Origin: a virus
Taxonomy: Duplodnaviria > Caudoviricetes
Strand: one strand, 5' to 3'
IMG/VR virus record: IMGVR_UViG_3300030095_001206
Location: 1-64,000 of that record
DNA: 64,000 bases
Shown: positions 4,302 through 49,048 of the stretch, one piece after another
How the letters are laid out: each line of letters starts with the position of its first letter
Numbering within the stretch: position 1 is the stretch's first letter
Notes under the pieces: model-generated
What the model was told of the DNA's origin: nothing
What the model saw: the letters and a program-made list of their open reading frames with translations, nothing else
Databases searched by the model: none
Made by a program: the position numbers and the translations under genes

Positions 4302-4877
4302 TTAAGAAGGTGTAGGATACTGGATGCTGTGATCTCCTGTAGTAATACCAGACATGGCAACAAGAACTTCTTTCTTCACTCTAAGTTCTCCATTATCTTG
4401 TAAGTAAGTGGTAACACCAACCCAACCCTCAGCATCTACTCCATAAGAAGCAGATAGTCCACCATTGATGGCAGTTGTAGAAATACCATATACTAATGAA
4501 TCAGACTCAAAGTCAGAACCAGGGTTTCTATACCTGTCTCCCTGTAAATCAAAGAGAGTATACTTAGGTAACTGTGACACATAGAACGAAGTACCAGCAG
4601 CAGCAGTAACTGCAGATAAATCAGCAATACTTTCACTGACTAATGCATCAGTATGAGCGATAGCACATTCTTGAGTACCAGCAATACTAACGATAACCAC
4701 ATTACCGTAATATGTACCAGCATCAGAACGAACACCAACGCTAATTATGTCACCAACTGATGCTGACCCTGTTTCTCCAAAACTTGTACCAGCACCGAAA
4801 ACTATCTTGGTGTCATAACTGAATCCAGTTATAAGCCCAACATTGTCGATGTTATTGTTATTTCCCCAAAGAGCCAT
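4302..4877 (-). CDS. Probable virion structural protein
   Basis: MALWG start, Gly/Ser/Thr-rich, GWVGVTTY...RVKKEVLVAM C-terminus; late promoter motif upstream. Confidence 0.7.
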   Translation of the reverse strand: MALWGNNNNIDNVGLITGFSYDTKIVFGAGTSFGETGSASVGDIISVGVRSDAGTYYGNVVIVSIAGTQECAIAHTDALVSESIADLSAVTAAAGTSFYVSQLPKYTLFDLQGDRYRNPGSDFESDSLVYGISTTAINGGLSASYGVDAEGWVGVTTYLQDNGELRVKKEVLVAMSGITTGDHSIQYPTPS

Positions 4878-4909: not shown

Positions 4910-4916
4910 TATTTAT
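4910..4916 (-). promoter_or_regulatory. T4-type late promoter (ATAAATA)
   Basis: TAAATA core upstream of the 4877 start. Confidence 0.55.
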
Positions 4917-5141: not shown

Positions 5142-5618
5142 TTAGTCGTCTGGATCTAAGAAGTTTACAGTCTCGTGATCTTTCTTCTTCAACCTTTTCT
5201 TTGCCTCTGCTCCAGCATCTCTACCATAATCATGCTTAGGAGCATCTTTCTTCTTCATTACTTTCTTAATAGCTTCACCTGCTTTATCTTTCCATCCCTC
5301 AAATGCTAGTTTAGGTCCACCTGCTTTCTTCTCAGCAGCTGATTTTTCGTTTGGATTCATGTTACCTTTCGCAAGATTACGTAATTTTGCTTTCTTTTGT
5401 GCTGTTCTATGTGCTGACTTATCAATATCAAAACTTTCTTTCTCAACCTTTTTCTCAGGCAATCCTTTATGCTTTGTCTTAGCAAACTTCTTAGCATCTT
5501 TCATGCTAATGTCACCTGCTACATCAGAAACTTCTTTGGATGGATTCTTCATCTCACCCTTCTGGGCAGCACGAACCATTCCAAAGAAGCGTTGTTGTTT
5601 TTTAGATACTGCTGGCAT
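5142..5618 (-). CDS. Basic hypothetical protein (DUF3008-like N-terminus), candidate internal head protein
   Basis: MPAVSKKQQRFFGMV...AKTKHKGLPEK motif; Lys-rich. Confidence 0.75.
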   Translation of the reverse strand: MPAVSKKQQRFFGMVRAAQKGEMKNPSKEVSDVAGDISMKDAKKFAKTKHKGLPEKKVEKESFDIDKSAHRTAQKKAKLRNLAKGNMNPNEKSAAEKKAGGPKLAFEGWKDKAGEAIKKVMKKKDAPKHDYGRDAGAEAKKRLKKKDHETVNFLDPDD

Positions 5619-6001
5619 TATCCTTTGGGATAGCGACCCTGTGATGGATCCTTCTTACGTTCTGCTGCATTTTCTGCATCAACTTTTGATTGATGAGCAC
5701 GTACCTTTGCTTTATCAGCAGCACTTTGTGGTTTTCTGGGGTTGTCCTTACTTACATACCCACTTTTTCCAACTTCTTTTCTAATTTTGTTCTTTACAAA
5801 TTCAAAAGCAGCATCAGATTCTACCACAGCATTAGCAGGTATCTGTGGTTTCTTTTTAGAACCAATCTGCTTCTTCAAGTCATCATAATCCATCTGGGTT
5901 CTGATTTTACGTGCAGTATCTTGATCCTTTGGACTGCTACTTACACTTTTAGTGAAAGCGTATTCTCTACGCTTGTCACGAAAGTCTTCAAATGTCAGCA
6001 T
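5618..6001 (-). CDS. Basic hypothetical protein, candidate internal head protein
   Basis: Starts MLTFEDF; TAATG coupling to next gene. Confidence 0.75.
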   Translation of the reverse strand: MLTFEDFRDKRREYAFTKSVSSSPKDQDTARKIRTQMDYDDLKKQIGSKKKPQIPANAVVESDAAFEFVKNKIRKEVGKSGYVSKDNPRKPQSAADKAKVRAHQSKVDAENAAERKKDPSQGRYPKG

Positions 6002-6919
6002 TTAACCGTACCCGTTATCACGCATGAACTTTTTGAATGCAGGAGAGTTGATTCCCTTATCAGGAGAATCCATTCTCTTTTGTCTTGCACTTCTCTTGTC
6101 TTCCTTCTCAGCCTTCTCAGGTTCTCTCATAGCCTGATAGTTTTCATCAAATACATCCCAATTCAATTCAGTAATCTCTTCTTCAGTCATAGGACTAACC
6201 TTAAACTGAACATCATTCATCTCACCAAGTTCATCAAGAGCCTCAGCAACTCTATCCCAAAGAATCTCTTCCTTTATCTTAAGATTCTTATCTTCTTCAA
6301 TAGACTCAACCTTTCCACCAAGTGCTTGCTCCAGTTTAATTTCTGGATCAATAACCACTTTATTCTTTACATTACTTTCTTTTACTTTTTTTGCTGCTGT
6401 TGCTTCTGGTTCGTCTACAACCTCAGATAAATCATCTCTCCAATTAGAAAATGATTCTTTCACCTTTCTATTCTTAATATCTTTAGGATTCTTTGATCTT
6501 CCTTTAGAATCATAACCATATTCAGCATCCTCTTTCACCTTCTTACCCATTGCCTTTTTAATGGCCTTATCTTTAGAACCAAAATACTCTTCCTTACCAC
6601 TTTCTACTTTACCATCACCATCATAATCTTTATCTGCTTTCTTCTCATTCATAGTAGCATATAACTCTGCATACTCTTCATTCTTGAGATGATCAGCAGC
6701 AGCATATCCCTTAGCACCTGCTTTATAGTTTTGATATGCTTTAGTATTTGCCTTTTTGTCTGCTCTGGTAACTATCATCTTCTTAGGAGCACCAGCAGCA
6801 TTATCCTTATTCTCACGACTTGCTAATTCTTGTCCAGCAGACTTAGGCTTTCCATACACTGCCTCTGCATAGAGGGAATTTAAGTCCTTCATTGCTTTCT
6901 TCTCAGAATAAATGTCCAT
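6002..6919 (-). CDS. Modular Lys/Glu-rich hypothetical protein, candidate internal head protein
   Basis: 305 aa ORF, DKDYDGDGKVE loop, many (V/I/L)xE boundaries. Confidence 0.8.
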   Translation of the reverse strand: MDIYSEKKAMKDLNSLYAEAVYGKPKSAGQELASRENKDNAAGAPKKMIVTRADKKANTKAYQNYKAGAKGYAAADHLKNEEYAELYATMNEKKADKDYDGDGKVESGKEEYFGSKDKAIKKAMGKKVKEDAEYGYDSKGRSKNPKDIKNRKVKESFSNWRDDLSEVVDEPEATAAKKVKESNVKNKVVIDPEIKLEQALGGKVESIEEDKNLKIKEEILWDRVAEALDELGEMNDVQFKVSPMTEEEITELNWDVFDENYQAMREPEKAEKEDKRSARQKRMDSPDKGINSPAFKKFMRDNGYG

Positions 6920-6930
6920 TTTATCAAGAA

Positions 6931-8181
6931 CTAGTTTTTTCTATACTTATTTAGGAAATTTTTAAATGACTTGACTGTAGCACCAGGTGTTTTCTCTTCT
7001 GCGTTCTTCAAATACCCCTTTGTACCTACCAAAGTATTGGGATGAGTCTTATCTCTCATCTTACGATCCATTTTTACTTCACTATATGCTTCAGAGACAT
7101 CACCTATCCAAGATTTGAACATCATTTTGTCTTCTGTGACGCTAATAAGGTAATTTGTACCCCTACGAACGATACGACCTTTCAGTCCAGTGTTCAAATT
7201 CTCAACCAAATCACCTATGTTAAAGATCTTTTTAAGGAAGAAATTCTCACGTAGTCCTTCCCAATCAAGTTTAGGTGCAATCCTCCATAAACCTTCGTCT
7301 ATCTTAGTTGCTGCTTTAACTTTCTTCTCTGCTGCACGTTTTACTGAATTGAAGATGTTTTTTGCTAATTTTTCATCAACCTTGGATGGCATTCCACTCA
7401 ACCAAGACTTAAAATCATCCTCTGCTGCTGCCTTTCTTAGTTTAGACGCAGACATTCCCTCGATGCCCTCAGCATCGGGGTCTCTGTCCCCTGCTGAAAC
7501 AACGTTAATGTCCTCAAAATCATAGAGTTCTCCGTTGTATTTGAGTGCGAGTTTCTCAAATTCAGCTTGTCTGTCAGAACCAACCACGATGTTGATACTG
7601 GAGTATCCATCTTCATTTGCTTTCTTTAATACATTAAATATGGTCTTCATCTCACCGTCATTCACAATTCTTTCACCATGTGAAGGATATAACTGCCTCA
7701 TAAAGGCAATTTTTTCGTCTGGTGATAGTGGATTTTTATTATCGTCTTGTGTTCTTGATGGATAAATGCCATAATCCCCACCTTTTGATGCTGATTTTGC
7801 AGCATTCATTAGTTTTTCATGTCCAACCGTGGGTGGATTGAACCTTCCAAAGGCAACAGTAGCAGTTCCTTTGTCTTCTTTTTCTCCTTCACCACCATCA
7901 TCTGATGCTGGCATTCCAGTTGCACCACCTTGTGCTTGTGGTTGCTTAGTCTGTTGAGCAGGTTGAGCCTGTGCTGCTTTTTGTTTAGCAGGTGCGTCTT
8001 CTTTACCTCCTCCTCTCTTTTGAGCAAGTACTAATTCACCCTTTTCAGTATGTCCACGGTAATTTCCTTCCCTATCATACCAATTTCCATGCCCATCCGA
8101 CACAAATCCCAAGCGTCGAGCTTGCTCAACTGCACGGGATGTTCTAGGTGCTTCGGATAAAAACTGTTGAAAAGACTTCAT
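6931..8181 (-). CDS. HIGH-superfamily nucleotidyltransferase (annotated cytidyltransferase in cyanophages) with capsid-targeting-like N-terminus
   Basis: VAFGRFNPPTVGHEKL, VVGSDR, MSASKLR motifs; N-terminus MKSFQQFLSE. Confidence 0.88.
   Translation of the reverse strand: MKSFQQFLSEAPRTSRAVEQARRLGFVSDGHGNWYDREGNYRGHTEKGELVLAQKRGGGKEDAPAKQKAAQAQPAQQTKQPQAQGGATGMPASDDGGEGEKEDKGTATVAFGRFNPPTVGHEKLMNAAKSASKGGDYGIYPSRTQDDNKNPLSPDEKIAFMRQLYPSHGERIVNDGEMKTIFNVLKKANEDGYSSINIVVGSDRQAEFEKLALKYNGELYDFEDINVVSAGDRDPDAEGIEGMSASKLRKAAAEDDFKSWLSGMPSKVDEKLAKNIFNSVKRAAEKKVKAATKIDEGLWRIAPKLDWEGLRENFFLKKIFNIGDLVENLNTGLKGRIVRRGTNYLISVTEDKMMFKSWIGDVSEAYSEVKMDRKMRDKTHPNTLVGTKGYLKNAEEKTPGATVKSFKNFLNKYRKN
6948..6954 (-). 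promoter_or_regulatory. Late promoter (CTAAATA)
   Basis: TAAATA core upstream of the 6919 start. Confidence 0.55.
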
Positions 8182-8202: not shown

Positions 8203-8209
8203 TATTTAT
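8203..8209 (-). promoter_or_regulatory. Late promoter (ATAAATA)
   Basis: TAAATA core just upstream of the nucleotidyltransferase start at 8181. Confidence 0.6.
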
Positions 8210-9381
8210 TTCTTTTTATAATCACACATTATATGAGTGGGATATGTTCCTCCCTGCTTATTTCTAATGTTCCACATAAATTTATACAATGAACTTTCCA
8301 TATGTATATCAATACGTTTACCTGTACCTGAAGATCCACCATAATTAACAGTAATACCACCTGTGATGTTAGAGGCTTTCTTCATAAATGCTTTATCAAC
8401 TTGATACATTTGAACTTTTCCTACCCCACCATGAACCATCCAATAATTATATCCTATAGCATACTGTAACATTGTTTTTATCATATTAATATCTGCCTCT
8501 GAGGTAGTATCAACCTTTGAACCTTTATAACCTTTACCATACTTTTCAAAAACTGATGCAAATTCAACTGGATCGATACCAAACATTTTAAAAATACCTT
8601 TACCAATTGAATTAGTATAACCACTATAACCAGTTTGTTTAGTGAAATAATTTTTATAGTCATTTGGTAAAAATATTCTACCAACACCAGAATTGATAAA
8701 GGTTAAAGTATTTCCATGTTTAAGAGAGAGGTATACTTTTTGTTTATTTCTAAACTCTGTAGTAATATCAGTGATTGTGCTGCCAATATCTAAAGTATCT
8801 CTTCCACCAGCAGTGACATATAATTTACTAGTATTTCCTGCTATTGGTCGTGGTTGATTCCTTCCACCTACAGCTTCAACACCAATAAGTCCTCCAGGAA
8901 TTGCTATTTTCTCAAGCAATTCCTTTGCCTCTTTCTCATATGGAGTTGGTTTACATTGACAATTCAAATAACAATCAAGACTTTCATAGAAATCTTTTTC
9001 AAATTTAATACCCAGGTTTACCCTTTTACCAGTTTGTCCTCCAAATTCTTCTGTTTTTTCCAAGTCATTTAATTTAACTGTCTCTATTGTACCATCATCT
9101 ACATACTTTCCAGTAAATTTTAACGAACCTTTACCATTCAAAGCATTTTCCAAACGAGCATATGCTTCTTGATAATCAGACATCTGATCTGTCTCAAAAG
9201 CAACTATCTCCTCATTCCCTTCAGTAAAAACTAACGCTTCTGCATCAAACTGTCCTCCCTTTACTCCATTACCTGGTCTAACCAAAAATCTATTCATATA
9301 ACCAGGAAAATGAAAGAACTTCTTTAAAAGAATTTCTGCTCTATCTCCTTTCTTAATCTGAGTTTTATCTAACTTTGCCAT
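8206..9381 (-). CDS. Putative PD-(D/E)xK-fold endonuclease
   Basis: NLGIKFEKDF helix, TITDIT strand, YLSLK motif. Confidence 0.55.
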   Translation of the reverse strand: MAKLDKTQIKKGDRAEILLKKFFHFPGYMNRFLVRPGNGVKGGQFDAEALVFTEGNEEIVAFETDQMSDYQEAYARLENALNGKGSLKFTGKYVDDGTIETVKLNDLEKTEEFGGQTGKRVNLGIKFEKDFYESLDCYLNCQCKPTPYEKEAKELLEKIAIPGGLIGVEAVGGRNQPRPIAGNTSKLYVTAGGRDTLDIGSTITDITTEFRNKQKVYLSLKHGNTLTFINSGVGRIFLPNDYKNYFTKQTGYSGYTNSIGKGIFKMFGIDPVEFASVFEKYGKGYKGSKVDTTSEADINMIKTMLQYAIGYNYWMVHGGVGKVQMYQVDKAFMKKASNITGGITVNYGGSSGTGKRIDIHMESSLYKFMWNIRNKQGGTYPTHIMCDYKKK

Positions 9382-9394
9382 CAAACTTTCTAAG

Positions 9395-9401
9395 TATTTA
9401 G
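9395..9401 (-). promoter_or_regulatory. Late promoter (CTAAATA)
   Basis: TAAATA core just upstream of ATG 9381. Confidence 0.55.
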
Positions 9402-14083: not shown

Positions 14084-14542
14084 TTAAATACCTAATAGTT
14101 TCTTTTGACGTTCAAAATAGCCATGGAGAATCCAGGAACTGCTGTTCATTTTGTCATCCCCACCGATACCCCAAGCAAACTCTACGTTTGGATGATCATC
14201 ATACTGATCAATTTCTGGCGTATTACTTTTTCCACGGTCACCTCCATTGGCAAAGACTACCGTTTGTGCTATCTCCAAGCATTTTGCGATTGCTCCACAC
14301 GCAGAATCATCTTCATCATTCCAGGAGATAACTGCATCTACCATATCAAGATGTCTGATGATCTCGGCTCTTTCCTTCCATGACTGGAAGTACTGCCCTT
14401 TCTTACGTGTCAACCACTCTTCAGTGTTGATGCCAACCACAAGATAATTAGAGAGATCTTTTGCTCTCTTAAAGTATGATATATGTCCACTGTGGATTGG
14501 ATCAAACCCACCAGTAACCAAACTCACTTTTTCAAAAAACAT
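14084..14542 (-). CDS. TagD/RfaE-like cytidylyl/adenylyltransferase
   Basis: [28 protein letters not shown] motifs. Confidence 0.88.
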
Positions 14543-36555: not shown

Positions 36556-37995
36556 TTACATAAGGTTCTTAACAGAAACACGTCTGTAGTAACGGTTAGC
36601 ATTAACACGTAGACGGCCAAGTCCCTGAGTAACTCCCTCAGCGAATGGGTTTGAAACCATACCGTAACGAGTCTTAAACCCGATTTTTGGTTGGAATGTG
36701 TTCTCTCCAACTGCACGAACCATCTGTAGAGGAACGTATGGGCAGTAGAACAGACCAGCATCATAAGGAGATGAACCCTTATAACCAACAACATAGTACT
36801 GGTTACCACCTGTTGCGTTAGCAGCAGTTAGGTTAGCAGAATATGGGTCGATGTATACTCTGTACTTACCATTGATTGTACCAGCAAATGTGTTACCAGT
36901 GTCATCAACGTTAAGGTTAGCATTAAGTGCTGGAGTGTAATCAAGTACACCTGCCATTGTTAATGCAGAAGCAACGTCAGCAGAAGTAAGGATGATGTTA
37001 CCCTTTCCACGACGAGTTCTTTGTGCGATTGCGTTAGCATCTCTCTCTATCTGGAACAGAAGTCCTTTGAACTTCTCAACAGACCATCTTCCGTTTGAGT
37101 CGATGTCAAGGTCGAATACACCAGCAGTAGATGTGTTAGAAACAGCACCCTGTTCTGCAACCTTGTAGATTGTTCTAATAACTTCTCTGTTGATTTCCGC
37201 AAGGATCTCAGTAGAAAGGATATTAGCAAGTTCTGCTTCAGCGTTAAGGCCATGAATTGCCTTAAGGTCTTGAGCAAGCTCAAGTGAGTACTCAGCTTTA
37301 AGTGCTCTGGACTTCGCAGTCACAGTAACTTTCTCAATGCTGAACGCCATTTCAGCGAACTGGTTGTTCGTGCCGTTACCTAAGTTCTCGGCATCACCAG
37401 CAACCATACCCTGACCAACGTTATAGTCGGTTGAAGTTGCAGTACCAACTGGGTTTAGTACAGCAGGGTTACTACCATTTTGACTGATAGTACCAATACC
37501 AGCAGGTACATCAGAGAATGCACTGTTGATACCAGCAGATCCATCTCCACCGAAGTCGTTGGAAGACTGACCTGAGAAAGCAGTGTTTGCTTCGTTGTAG
37601 AATGCTTCAGTTCCACTTTGATTAGTGTAACGTGAACGCATTGCGAAGATAAGTCCAGTAGGACCACTCATTGGTTGTACACCAGCAAGGTCGTAAGCGA
37701 CCAAGTTTGGCATAGAGCGTCTGATTAGACTTATTAATACTGGGTCGAAACCAGCAACAGGACCAGCAGCAGCAGAGTTACCGCCGAAGCCGCCTTGATG
37801 GGCAGCAGCGTTTGCTGAGTTTGTTGGTGATTCCATCAAGGATGTACCTTGACTGAATGCTTGCTCCTCTTTGAGGAATTTTTCTTGGTTTTCTAGTAGA
37901 ACTGCGGTTACCGCTTTACGATGTGGATCGGTGATACCACCATCGTGATCCAAAAGGGGCTTCCACTTCTCGACTAGATGTTCTGATTGGAACAT
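36556..37995 (-). CDS. gp23: Major capsid protein (gp23)
   Basis: AVLLENQ, GVQPMSGPTGLIFAMR, YSLELAQDLKAIHG, FYCPYVPL, GFKTRYG. Confidence 0.99.
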   Translation of the reverse strand: MFQSEHLVEKWKPLLDHDGGITDPHRKAVTAVLLENQEKFLKEEQAFSQGTSLMESPTNSANAAAHQGGFGGNSAAAGPVAGFDPVLISLIRRSMPNLVAYDLAGVQPMSGPTGLIFAMRSRYTNQSGTEAFYNEANTAFSGQSSNDFGGDGSAGINSAFSDVPAGIGTISQNGSNPAVLNPVGTATSTDYNVGQGMVAGDAENLGNGTNNQFAEMAFSIEKVTVTAKSRALKAEYSLELAQDLKAIHGLNAEAELANILSTEILAEINREVIRTIYKVAEQGAVSNTSTAGVFDLDIDSNGRWSVEKFKGLLFQIERDANAIAQRTRRGKGNIILTSADVASALTMAGVLDYTPALNANLNVDDTGNTFAGTINGKYRVYIDPYSANLTAANATGGNQYYVVGYKGSSPYDAGLFYCPYVPLQMVRAVGENTFQPKIGFKTRYGMVSNPFAEGVTQGLGRLRVNANRYYRRVSVKNLM

Positions 37996-38030: not shown

Positions 38031-39119
38031 TCAAGGATTCATCTTGCCTAATGCACTCATGTATTTCTCCATTGTGCCAGAAACTTGCTCGGCAAGTGTT
38101 CCGTCAGTGGCTTCCATCAGTGTATCTGCGGCGGATGATTGAGGTGCAACCTTTTTATCAGAGAAATAAGATTCTCTCAGGGTGGTTAGCTTCTCAGTGT
38201 ACGACTCTTCACTTTCAAACTCAACACCTTCAGCAAGTGTAGCGAGCTTCTCTTTCTGTGTAGCAGCAAGACCTTCAGAAACACCTGAAAGTATTACATC
38301 TGAAGCAGACTCAGAGAGTCTTTTGTTCAGTTCTACATTCTTTTGGAGTTGCTCATTGAGTTTAGTCTCCATGTCATCTAACTTCTCTACCATAGTAGAG
38401 ACAACATCATATTTTTCGTCAGGGATTGATACATAATGATCTTCAAAAAGACTCTTCATTCCACCAAGGAATGATTCAGTCATTTCTGTTTTAAGTCCGT
38501 GCTCAACTGCGAGTTGGTTTTCCTTCAACCACTCTGCAGCAACGTACTCAAGATATGAGTCAGTACGTTCTGTGAGCTCAGCTTTGTGTTCTGCTACTGC
38601 TTCATTAATTGCAGTAGTCTTTTCTTCATCAAGTTTTGACTTGATTTCAGAAACCTTTGAGTTAATGGCAGCTTCAAAGATTGTTTTTGCTTTCTCTCTG
38701 AATTCTTCAGAAAGTTCTTCGCCACCTAATAGAGCATTGACATCATCTTCCATGTCATATGTCTCTACAACTTCTTCTTCAACAGGTGTTTCAGCAACAA
38801 CTTCTTGCTCATCAGTAAGTTCGGCCTCATCGCCTTGCTTAAGATTAGATGCGCTTTGTGCTCCCATTGCTCCTGTTTTACCTTTGCGGTTGGTAACCAC
38901 ATCAGAAACTTGCTTTATAGTTCCACCAGGTGTCTTAACTTTATTAGAGTCGTCGTCTGGTTTAGAATTTTGTGGAGTTGGTCCACCTAAATCCTCCCAA
39001 CTAACGGCAGTTCCGCCAGTAGTGAGTTTAGGCATAGCCTTATCACCAGGATTAGCATTTGCTGTTACGGCATTAGCTTCTGATACCTTTTCCATTTCTT
39101 GTAGTTTGCTACTCGCCAT
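38031..39119 (-). CDS. gp22: Prohead core scaffold protein (gp22)
   Basis: LSEEFREKAKTIFEAA, YLEYVAAEW, acidic; between gp21 and gp23. Confidence 0.92.
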   Translation of the reverse strand: MASSKLQEMEKVSEANAVTANANPGDKAMPKLTTGGTAVSWEDLGGPTPQNSKPDDDSNKVKTPGGTIKQVSDVVTNRKGKTGAMGAQSASNLKQGDEAELTDEQEVVAETPVEEEVVETYDMEDDVNALLGGEELSEEFREKAKTIFEAAINSKVSEIKSKLDEEKTTAINEAVAEHKAELTERTDSYLEYVAAEWLKENQLAVEHGLKTEMTESFLGGMKSLFEDHYVSIPDEKYDVVSTMVEKLDDMETKLNEQLQKNVELNKRLSESASDVILSGVSEGLAATQKEKLATLAEGVEFESEESYTEKLTTLRESYFSDKKVAPQSSAADTLMEATDGTLAEQVSGTMEKYMSALGKMNP

Positions 39120-39168: not shown

Positions 39169-39819
39169 TTAGAGATTTGATAAGAAATCATTAAACAGAT
39201 TCAACTTGTTCTCATCAAGTTTTTTCTGATCAACTAAAGTGTTGATGGTCTTGTATGTTTTGTGAGCCATTCTTTCACGAAGAATTCCTCCATCCCATAC
39301 CCAATCTTTTCCTTCCATGATTCCTTCAACAAAGGCATCTGGGGCAGAAGGATCGGCAACTATGTCAGCAGCAGTTGCTAACATAAAGTCGTCTCCTACG
39401 ACATTAATACCCTCACGTGTTGCTTTAAGAGATCCAATACCTCTTGAAGAAACACCGAGTTTTACTCCTTCCTCTACTAAGTTAGCAGCAATCTTACCCA
39501 TTGGAGTGCCAAGAATCTTAGCCTTACCAATGTAGTTAGAACCACTTTCCTTTAGAGAAACTATCTTATGTGAAACTCTATCGAGATTCACGGTTGGTCC
39601 TTCTGGATGTCCAAGTTCACCGAGAGCACGTCCTGATTGGATATGATTCTCGTTGTATCGAGAAACTTCTTTGCGAAGAACCTCTGCAGGATACATCCTA
39701 CCATTACGATTAGTAATGTTTCCTTGTAAGAAAACACCCTCGATATACATAGACTTCTTGCCGTTCTTTTGTTCGACTAGAAATTCTACTGATTCAATTT
39801 CTTCCGTAATGAGTTTCAT
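39169..39819 (-). CDS. gp21: Prohead protease (gp21)
   Basis: MKLITE, NRNGRMYP, GELGHP, GVSSRGIGS, DPSAPDAFV. Confidence 0.96.
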   Translation of the reverse strand: MKLITEEIESVEFLVEQKNGKKSMYIEGVFLQGNITNRNGRMYPAEVLRKEVSRYNENHIQSGRALGELGHPEGPTVNLDRVSHKIVSLKESGSNYIGKAKILGTPMGKIAANLVEEGVKLGVSSRGIGSLKATREGINVVGDDFMLATAADIVADPSAPDAFVEGIMEGKDWVWDGGILRERMAHKTYKTINTLVDQKKLDENKLNLFNDFLSNL

Positions 39820-47423: not shown

Positions 47424-48335
47424 TTAAGTAACGATGTCAGCACCAGCACCAGCTCTTACTGCCATTAATTTTTTAAGTAGAACTTGTCTTTTCAATCTCA
47501 TTACCCTCTTCTCCTTAGATTTCAACTCTTGATTTTCACGACCTTTCTTTTGTACTGCTAATTGCTTACCCTGCACATCATCAACTGATGGAGTTTTAGA
47601 TCCATTAGAAGGCATAGGTGCAGTATCCTCAGGCAATTGTAAAATTGGTTTAGTAGGATCTCTCATAACAACATCATAATCCATAACTCTTGAGCTAGGA
47701 TAGACTTTAACAATAGCATCTTGTACTTCTTTCTTAGATGGCATCTTTAGTTCTGGGAAGAACATCTGAAGAGACATATACTTACCACGCCACAAGAATG
47801 TAACATAAAGTGTTTGTCCATTTACTCTTGGAAGAGTTGTTGCTTCATAAGTATAAGTCTTCTTACCGACTTTGGTATGTCCATACTCACCAGTTTTACC
47901 TGGACGTACTTGACCTAACTTACTACCTTTCCTAGAAGGACCAGTTGAAGTGTTACGCCCTCTCTTAGTAGTAGGGTGTATTGTTGCTTTGTCCTTTCCT
48001 TTCTTTGTGATTACAGCATCTTGGTCATACTTTTTACCAAGACGTTTCATCTGCTTTTTAAATTTCCTAAACTTTTTCTTAGGAGCATTGACAGCAATAG
48101 ATGGTTCACTAACTGTCTTCTTTTCACCAGTCTTACTATCTGTTTCAGGATACTCACCTTTTACTTTCTTATAACCGTAACCCATACTACGAACTTTCTT
48201 TCCCAGTTCTTTGTTACGTGCTTTATTTTCCTTACTAGATTTGTCACCTCTATTAGCAGTTAGGACTGCGGTGCTGCGTTTCTTAGAGTGCTGCACCTGA
48301 CGTGACATACCACCTTCATCTATTTGATTCAACAT
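47424..48335 (-). CDS. Modular basic hypothetical protein, candidate internal head protein
   Basis: LNQIDE/GGMSR; AVLTANR...KENKARN module; second module after YTYE. Confidence 0.78.
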   Translation of the reverse strand: MLNQIDEGGMSRQVQHSKKRSTAVLTANRGDKSSKENKARNKELGKKVRSMGYGYKKVKGEYPETDSKTGEKKTVSEPSIAVNAPKKKFRKFKKQMKRLGKKYDQDAVITKKGKDKATIHPTTKRGRNTSTGPSRKGSKLGQVRPGKTGEYGHTKVGKKTYTYEATTLPRVNGQTLYVTFLWRGKYMSLQMFFPELKMPSKKEVQDAIVKVYPSSRVMDYDVVMRDPTKPILQLPEDTAPMPSNGSKTPSVDDVQGKQLAVQKKGRENQELKSKEKRVMRLKRQVLLKKLMAVRAGAGADIVT

Positions 48336-49048
48336 TTCCACTTCCTCAATGCTAGTGCCTTACGAGTAGGTCTTCCCTTCTCATCTTTCATTGGTCCTTT
48401 CATACCACCCATGCGAGCACAGAATGATCTCTTTCTAGGACCACCTTCAGGTTGTGGTGCTTTTAAATCAGAACCAGGATTCTCACGCTCGTAAGACTTC
48501 CTGCCTTTCTCATTTAATCCACCAGTTTTATTCTTTCCTTCTTTACGTTGCCAAGCACTTTCTACATTAAGGGTTTTTGGATAATCTTTATCACCAGGTT
48601 TTGCTGGTTTCTCACCACGCTTTCTCTTAGCATGAATATTATCCCAAAGTCCTTTTTTCTTACCTTCCTTCACACAATTAGGAACTTCCTTACCACCTTT
48701 CTTCTTAGTTCCCTTTGCCTTATATCCGTCCCAACATTTATCAGCACCTACATTTTTACGTGCTTGTTTTAAAGATTCTTTAAAATCTTCAAAACTTTTA
48801 GAAGTTGATTCGCTCATGCCCCCTCCATTGGAACCGTTCCCATTGCCATTGCCGTTGCTAGAACTAGACCCATTAGTTCCTGAATGTCCATTGCCATTCT
48901 TGTTGCCGTTTTTCTTAGATTTTCGTCCATTGTTATCATCGGGGTCAGGTCTTAACCATCCATGAGCTCCCACATATTTACCCTTTGGTATGGGCATACA
49001 CTTTTTTTCTTTAGTGCAATAGTATTTGCCAGGAGGACAGTCCTTCAT
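48329..49048 (-). CDS. Modular basic protein with NG-rich tract and DUF6321-like C-terminus
   Basis: GGLNEKGRKSY...RKRSFCARM...ALRKWKC; KCWDGY...VPNCV module. Confidence 0.8.
   Translation of the reverse strand: MKDCPPGKYYCTKEKKCMPIPKGKYVGAHGWLRPDPDDNNGRKSKKNGNKNGNGHSGTNGSSSSNGNGNGNGSNGGGMSESTSKSFEDFKESLKQARKNVGADKCWDGYKAKGTKKKGGKEVPNCVKEGKKKGLWDNIHAKRKRGEKPAKPGDKDYPKTLNVESAWQRKEGKNKTGGLNEKGRKSYERENPGSDLKAPQPEGGPRKRSFCARMGGMKGPMKDEKGRPTRKALALRKWKC

Follow-up and report, generated by a model that had tools for sequence, protein, structure and literature searches.

A T4-type capsid-targeting sequence and probable virion cargo in a late gene cluster of a T4-like cyanomyovirus

The window analysed here comprises 64,000 nucleotides (nt; positions 1 to 64,000 of IMG/VR virus record IMGVR_UViG_3300030095_001206) and belongs to a T4-like cyanomyovirus contig of 85 kb whose genes are all on the minus strand. 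We found that four consecutive, tightly packed open reading frames (ORFs A to D), located between mazG/helicase and primase/nrdA, probably encode late-transcribed virion cargo and would be the counterpart of the internal-protein (IP) and Alt genes of T4. The observed basis of this reading is the conservation and portability of an N-terminal tag, the late promoters, homology to virion proteins, motif statistics, predicted disorder and hypervariability. An earlier note on this DNA had taken the four products for proteins that are loaded into the prohead and cut into peptides by the protease gp21. Most of what it observed was right, but its statements on promoters, charge and motif statistics needed correcting; its interpretation was partly supported, well for A and, through the virion association of homologues, for B and D. 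The cluster contains the following elements (lengths in amino acids, aa).

8181-6931, minus strand: ORF A, 416 aa, the cyanomyovirus "cytidyltransferase", a predicted HIGH-motif nucleotidyltransferase with an N-terminal head-targeting tag
6919-6002, minus strand: ORF B, 305 aa, an acidic-plus-Lys-rich mosaic protein, mostly disordered by prediction
6001-5618, minus strand: ORF C, 127 aa, basic and poorly conserved
5618-5142, minus strand: ORF D, 158 aa, a DUF3008-type N-terminal module and a separate C-terminal module
8203-8208, minus strand: TAAATA late promoter core of A, about 22 nt upstream of its start
6948-6953, minus strand: TAAATA late promoter core of the B-C-D unit, inside the 3' end of A

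The description of four consecutive Lys-rich ORFs agreed with the ORF coordinates and with Lys contents of 11% (A), 16% (B), 16.5% (C) and 23% (D), against about 7-8% typical of the genome. The proteins had also been called basic, which is true of A, C and D (isoelectric point, pI, 9.2-9.9; C 9.9) but not of the acidic B (pI 5.7). Similarly, late (TATAAATA-type) promoters had been claimed before all four ORFs; TAAATA was found 22-34 nt upstream of A and B, but C and D have none of their own and their starts abut or overlap the preceding stop codon. C and D are thus predicted to depend on the promoter of B and to be translationally coupled to it. In nearly all of 69 homologous loci, TAAATA was kept 20-30 nt upstream of the start of A. 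The motif is rare in the window (43 sites vs about 81 expected, with 33 of the 43 on the coding strand), and the 15 of 93 ORFs that have it within 60 nt upstream are structural genes and four genes of this cluster (starts at 9381, 8181, 6919 and 4877). No close DNA relatives were found among isolate phages, where only short matches were obtained; the same position in Bellamy, P-TIM68 and S-SCSM1 is occupied by the 'cytidyltransferase' and variable neighbours.

Virion proteomes of cyanophages repeatedly contain enzymes that do not look structural, namely an NMNAT-like cytidyltransferase, a SAM hydrolase and an APH-like kinase, and the authors could not say whether they were truly packaged. A T4-type tag on exactly those enzymes would provide a packaging mechanism, and the tag-based protein delivery of T4 may work in cyanophages. 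Marine T4-like phages rank among the most abundant ocean viruses, and the tag could serve as a predictive rule for listing their injected proteins; the hypervariable, disordered B-type proteins are candidate protease substrates. The T4 scheme of tag, protease and scaffold is known. What would be new here is a cargo that is a multidomain HIGH nucleotidyltransferase, its place within the replication module, and the B-type proteins, which are untagged, hypervariable and predicted to be disordered.

The N-terminal tag of ORF A and its occurrence in virion proteins

Two ORFs of the window carried the tag.

8152-8181, minus strand: capsid-targeting sequence (CTS) codons of A, residues 1-10, with a gp21 cut predicted after Glu10
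50384-50040, minus strand: second tagged ORF, 114 aa, starting MKTFKQFMSE, in the structural module

A starts with MKSFQQFLSE, followed by Ala. In T4 (NC_000866), IPII and IPIII start with MKTYQEFIAE, also followed by Ala, and IPI starts with M-K-T-F-K-E-F. Within the T4 CTS, targeting is reported to depend on residues 4 and 7, and processing on residues 8 and 10 (PMC9026906). The similarity of the start of A to this sequence, which the earlier note had pointed out, extended to every position that T4 genetics found important. In a set of 52 unique A homologues from IMG/VR, which share an overall identity of only 40-60%, F4, F7 and a hydrophobic residue at position 8 were 100% conserved, while Glu10 was present in 51 and Ala11 in 48 sequences. 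Therefore, the conserved tag positions (4, 7, 8 and 10) are the positions that are functional in T4. Sequence conservation of this kind strongly supports the view that A carries a T4-type CTS.

The tag pattern was defined as M-K-x-[FY]-x-x-F-[LIVMF]-x-E, usually with Ala next. It was present in A and in the 114-aa ORF, but B, C and D had no full tag, and this weighs against the cargo reading. The starts of B and D are unrelated to it. CTS-like N-termini had been claimed for both A and C (start at 6001); both quoted starts exist, but C (M-L-T-F-E-D-F...) has only half of the tag, with the two aromatic targeting positions F4 and F7 and without the processing positions, hydrophobic-8 and Glu-10. 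Across 72 loci, no tag was found on B-D or on neighbouring ORFs besides the cytidyltransferase. A 30-nt degenerate version of the pattern matched true gene starts 1-2 times in each cyanophage genome and gave stray matches in genome G000 and in Bellamy; the reversed control had no match. In Bellamy (NC_047838; locus L001, 5001-5048), the cytidyltransferase probably starts 16 codons before its annotated start; an in-frame upstream Met gives the tag-like M-K-S-L-F-Q-F-L-N-E.

The tag was also found on unrelated proteins. The tag of the 114-aa ORF occurs identically on S-SCSM1 ORF30 and on an RlpA-like protein, whose mature sequences are unrelated. The exact start M-K-T-F-K-Q-F-M-x-E was present at 80 IMG/VR loci, which fell into at least 24 unrelated clusters of the mature part, including GNAT-like, kinase-like and P-loop proteins; about 0.003 matches would be expected by chance, an estimate based on the pattern degeneracy and an assumed size of IMG/VR. 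The tag is thus portable and occurs on unrelated proteins in cyanophages and uncultured phages. Two observations count against a strict link of the tag with packaging. Mature-part homologues of the 114-aa ORF, which in other phages lie in the cytidyltransferase cluster, have no tag, and S-SCSM1 ORF30 (106 aa) was not flagged as a virion protein. Its small size may be the reason, but the counter-example stands. No CTS linked to cyanophages was found in the searchable literature, which did not cover older subscription papers.

Published proteomes place homologues of these proteins in virions. In S-CREM2, 52 of 221 ORFs were detected in the virion (PMC10665884, Table 3). Our six-frame search of the whole S-CREM2 genome gave three tagged ORFs (gp154 cytidylyltransferase, gp6 SAM hydrolase and gp13) and two near-matches (gp14, an APH-like kinase with a GTG start, and gp136). 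All five belong to the virion set, with a chance probability of about 7e-4. The authors left the presence of 'regulatory' enzymes in S-CREM2 virions unexplained (PMC10665884), and all three of these enzymes are among the five tagged or near-tagged proteins. The two ORFs that follow the cytidylyltransferase were detected as well (PMC10665884). In S-CREM2 (OR473000.1), gp13 is a protein of 78 aa, and in the Cas9-like gp12 a motif similar to the tag lies at residues 17-26.

The window and S-SCSM1 are syntenic, and ORF91 of that phage is 49% identical to A. ORF91 was detected in virions by mass spectrometry, and such enzymes have been found repeatedly (PMC9602691). ORF89, ORF92, ORF93 and ORF95 are likewise annotated as mass-spectrometry virion proteins (PMC9602691). 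ORF92, at the position of B, has central modules in common with B (E 7e-10), ORF89 contains another B module, and ORF93 shows 67% identity over 57 aa to the DUF3008-type module of D. The recurrent presence of A homologues in purified cyanophage virions is therefore strongly supported, and homology to the published proteomes also supports virion association of B-type and D-type proteins. The proposal of virion cargo thus found matches for A in S-CREM2 and for A, B and D in S-SCSM1.

The predicted nucleotidyltransferase of ORF A

A matched phrog_395 (E 8e-100) in a PHROG profile search and Pfam CTP_transf_like (E 3e-5; 24.5 bits vs a cut-off of 21), and a homologue was present in 564 phage records. 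An AlphaFold (AF2) model was built from an alignment of 17 sequences and had a mean predicted local distance difference test score (pLDDT) of 64. The following parts were recognized in the model and the alignment.

Residues 4-10: low-confidence helix, separate from and ahead of the folded domains
8026-8124, minus strand: small conserved beta domain, residues about 20-52, with invariant D-G-H-G-x-W-Y-D and pLDDT of about 80 for residues 20-50
Residues 55-100: predicted disordered linker, rich in Gln, Pro and Glu, pLDDT below 35
7312-7869, minus strand: predicted nucleotidyltransferase domain, residues about 105-290, Rossmann fold with G-R-F-N-P-P-T-x-G-H and S-A-S-K-x-R motifs
After residue 290: predicted long helix
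Residues 310-360: predicted small beta barrel
7090-7098, minus strand: invariant [ILV]-x-Glu364 after the C-terminal beta barrel, a candidate gp21 site
Residues 360-416: predicted disordered tail

T-V-G-H and S-A-S-K-x-R were invariant in the alignment, and the model contained a Rossmann fold. By these features A is a HIGH-motif nucleotidyltransferase with a predicted PPAT/NMNAT-like fold. In a Foldseek search with the Rossmann domain, the best match was PPAT (1tfu, E 8e-6), followed by NaMNAT/NMNAT at about 1e-4, with identities of 11-19%; the alignment profile of A matched no solved structure among the PDB sequences. Neither the sequence profile nor fold matches of just 15-18% identity fix the substrate, a point that counts against the cargo reading. 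Some cyanophage records name A homologues NMN adenylyltransferase. We did not adopt the name NMNAT, since NMNAT and PPAT are not told apart by the fold search, which ranks PPAT higher. No literature was found under the name 'cytitidyltransferase'. A second small HIGH-motif nucleotidyltransferase (14084-14542, minus strand, 152 aa) lies beside the DNA polymerase region; it is unrelated to A and untagged.

The [ILV]-x-Glu364 site was found in 52 of 52 A homologues and is followed by tails of 16-126 aa with large indels. Another such motif precedes the barrel in 39 of the 52 (hand tally of sequence contexts). By analogy with T4 Alt, which is cut at both ends, a C-terminal cut of A is plausible.

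ORF B as a candidate gp21 substrate, ORFs C and D, and alternative readings

The protease and the scaffold that the cargo reading calls for are both encoded in the window, and the prohead protease lies where the earlier note had placed it.

39169-39819, minus strand: gp21 prohead (head maturation) protease, phrog_207, E 3e-83
38031-39119, minus strand: gp22 scaffold, phrog_237, E 1e-109, adjoining gp21

Counts of [ILV]-x-Glu ([ILV]xE) in all 93 ORFs were compared with composition-preserving shuffles, using gp22, a known gp21 substrate, as the positive control. The scaffold gp22 had 21 sites (9.2 expected, z 4.7), and B was second in the genome, with 11 sites (4.8 expected, z 3.2, p 0.005); gp21 itself had 9 (4.6 expected, z 2.5). 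A was not significantly enriched (7 vs 4.8), and C and D had one site each, as chance predicts. The genome-wide comparison of motif frequency thus favoured B and left A, C and D near chance. All of the (V/I/L)xE junctions that the earlier note had quoted are present in the sequence. Two further possible sites were seen in the head genes: the major capsid protein gp23 (36556-37995, minus strand) has L-M-E/S at residue 57, a likely counterpart of the maturation cut of T4 gp23, and gp21 starts with M-K-L-I-T-E, like the L-I-E site noted for T4 gp21.

In B, all 11 sites fall within residues 128-251, which are predicted to be disordered. The AF2 model of B had a pLDDT of 51, with only residues 46-85 folded and the rest predicted to be disordered. 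Among 29 non-redundant proteins at the B position, the [ILV]xE ratio was 1.72, compared with 0.80 for the Asp version and 0.92 for the Lys version. The C-terminal ends of common modules adjoin [ILV]xE in 47% of cases vs 23% of random positions, whereas module starts show no excess (23.7% vs 23.5%). At two loci, DUF3008 is fused in frame to a B-type protein, with L-D-E or I-E-E directly before the module. The claim of gp21-cut polyproteins has statistical support for B alone (motif excess, preference for Glu over Asp, predicted disorder and fusion joints), for which we regard multi-site cutting as plausible, although somewhat short of probable. It is not supported for C and D, where the motif is at chance level.

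B and D are mosaics, and the shuffling of unrelated short modules that had been proposed is real. Bellamy, P-TIM68, S-SCSM1 and IMG/VR contigs contain pieces of both proteins, arranged differently and in different ORFs. The relatives of B are 1746 metagenomic sequences, none of them named. The flanks of the cluster are 96-97.5% identical to the nearest relative (L003), while the 3' part of B together with C is only 75-90% identical, with cassette indels. The start of C abuts the stop of B; C lies inside this hypervariable island and has homologues at no more than 4 loci, all of them close. B variants in near-identical phages (L003 4170-5309 and L007 1925-3073) carry extra cassettes, namely an insert of about 75 aa containing His and Cys and a short Cys-rich piece (C-x-C-x4-C); the B of the window instead has a 25-aa insert with V-K-E on both sides.

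The N-terminal DUF3008-type module of D comprises residues 1-57 (5448-5618). It scored 21.0 bits against Pfam DUF3008 (PF11450), below the cut-off of 24 bits, with E 4e-4 over the whole 57-position profile, yet several PHROGs with the same N-terminal module matched D at E 1e-18 to 1e-20. On these scores the module of D is a divergent relative of DUF3008 and not a curated member. The commonest form of DUF3008 is a free-standing ORF that starts with M-P-A. The C-terminal module of D is a separate 60-aa gene in P-TIM68 (gp160). Searches of D against PDB sequences gave nothing useful, and no literature on DUF3008 was found.

Several results weigh against B as a polyprotein. Kinship among the sequences inflates the pooled motif z-scores, the reverse pattern, Glu-x-[ILV], is enriched too (ratio 1.52), and one acidic motif, which follows L-G-G, dominates the signal at module ends. 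Together with the missing tags and the chance-level motif counts in C and D, the last two speak for the reading that A is tagged head cargo while B-D are not internal, being structural or accessory parts (neck, tail, fibre or decoration) or scaffold-like factors that are degraded and lost. The [ILV]xE excess of B would then come from a conserved acidic strand-like motif and not from protease sites. The gene that follows the cluster points in the same direction.

4302-4877, minus strand: downstream late gene, 191 aa, with its own TAAATA at 4910-4915

Its product is 43% identical to S-SCSM1 ORF95, which is annotated 'tail fiber protein (virion protein)' by mass spectrometry, and therefore some of the cluster products may be ordinary structural parts. 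On the other hand, B is predicted to be almost wholly disordered, which is unusual for a structural part, and Glu is preferred over Asp, as by the protease. Moreover, the DUF3008 fusions have the site exactly at the joint, and the locus is hypervariable, as T4 internal-protein loci are. We therefore consider a purely structural or scaffold-like role of B-D unlikely, though worth keeping in mind.

A could also be a cytoplasmic metabolic enzyme, for example in late NAD/coenzyme salvage, with an N-terminus that serves folding, regulation or translation and with virion detection due to carry-over. The authors of both proteomes allow for carry-over of abundant proteins through CsCl purification (PMC10665884, PMC9602691). 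The counts of S-CREM2 gp154 were low, with 3 peptides and 11% coverage (PMC10665884), and the gene lies among replication genes. But the same tag occurs on many unrelated proteins, every tagged S-CREM2 protein is in the virion set, and the match to T4 holds position by position, including the Ala at P1'. In addition, the late promoter is conserved, and the modelled tag is a separate, low-confidence helix before the folded domains. A purely cytoplasmic role of A is thus very improbable. Finally, B, C and D could hardly be non-functional pieces of a single larger gene disrupted by mutation or by an error of assembly: relatives do have a single ORF of 240-1006 aa at this position (P-TIM68 gp159 has 1006 aa) and some phages fuse DUF3008 in frame to a B-type protein, but the three-ORF layout with abutting stop and start recurs in four independent contigs (L003, L004, L007 and L008/L010), which led us to reject the idea, and the free-standing DUF3008 ORF is the commonest form, with the S-SCSM1 version a detected virion protein.

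In the virion-cargo reading, which we prefer, the tag would dock A on the scaffolding core (gp22) during prohead assembly, and gp21 would cut A after Glu10 and probably also after Glu364, removing the variable basic tail as in T4 Alt. Mature A would stay in the head with the DNA and enter the cell at infection. B, C and D would be transcribed from the one late promoter inside the end of A. B would be a disordered Lys/Glu-rich chain of short shuffled motifs whose exposed [ILV]-x-Glu sites make it a likely multi-site substrate of gp21, like gp22, and D would bring the DUF3008-type module that other phages fuse to B-type proteins directly behind such a site. B-D would enter the particle without a tag and may lie in the head.

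A broader joint reading, in which one portable tag is common to cyanophages and many uncultured T4-like phages, A is a core injected enzyme and B is diced into peptides, is doubtful as a whole. If it were true, the genome sequence alone would be enough to identify all injected proteins. The tagged nucleotidyltransferase would act at the very beginning of infection, for instance to restore a nucleotide cofactor destroyed by host defences, and the untagged hypervariable B-type chains would give many small charged peptides that serve as DNA counter-ions or as fast-evolving counter-defence effectors.

Comparison with known delivery systems and neighbouring genes

The T4 internal proteins IPI, IPII and IPIII carry a CTS (Mullaney and Black 1996, as reviewed in PMC9026906). 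Like them, the cluster has a ten-residue tag in which positions 4 and 7 are aromatic, position 8 is hydrophobic and position 10 is Glu, usually with Ala as the next residue; it also has a late promoter, and the genome encodes the partners gp21 and gp22. Further points in common are a conserved tag on unrelated, fast-changing mature parts and basic, Lys-rich products. Unlike the T4 proteins, the cargo A would be a multidomain enzyme of 400 aa and not a small basic protein, B-D are untagged, and the genes lie in the replication module between mazG and primase. The IPI* protein of T4 blocks the GmrSD system.

T4 Alt is a head-packaged and injected ADP-ribosyltransferase that is processed by gp21 at its N- and C-terminus (PMC9026906). 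Likewise, A would be a head-borne enzyme, and its variable C-terminal tail is preceded by an invariant candidate site. In contrast to Alt, the fold and chemistry of A are predicted to be those of a HIGH nucleotidyltransferase and not of an ADP-ribosyltransferase. In the giant phages SPN3US and phiKZ, many head-internal (ejection) proteins undergo cleavage at several Glu-ending sites by a prohead protease related to gp21 (PMC5694885, PMC7411985). Those proteins differ in having propeptides of more than 100 residues, a different motif and cuts shown by mass spectrometry, whereas the cuts described here are predictions. The polyvalent proteins that Iyer and colleagues described in phages and conjugative elements (PMC5512222) are also strings of shuffled modules, which are believed to be delivered along with the DNA and to be cleaved from one another. 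However, they are large chains of recognizable enzyme domains, often with their own protease, whereas the B-type proteins are predicted to be disordered and consist of motifs 20-60 residues long, without any known domain. The proteins of this cluster were not mentioned in the polyvalent-protein literature (PMC5512222) or the NAD-network literature examined.

Two further late or Lys-rich regions were seen near the cluster and near the packaging genes. Directly upstream of A lies a late gene of 392 aa (8206-9384, minus strand) with TAAATA at 9395-9400; it matched phrog_8438 and no Pfam family. S-SCSM1 ORF90, at the same position, is a virion protein with no detectable similarity to it. Upstream of the large terminase gene, and separated from that gene by a 123-aa ORF, two Lys-rich proteins (47424-49048, minus strand; 303 and 239 aa, pI about 10) are encoded. 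They contain mosaic PHROGs that are common with D (phrog_10538 and phrog_26015) and with the C-terminal barrel of A (phrog_22379), and therefore one module pool is used in the two clusters.

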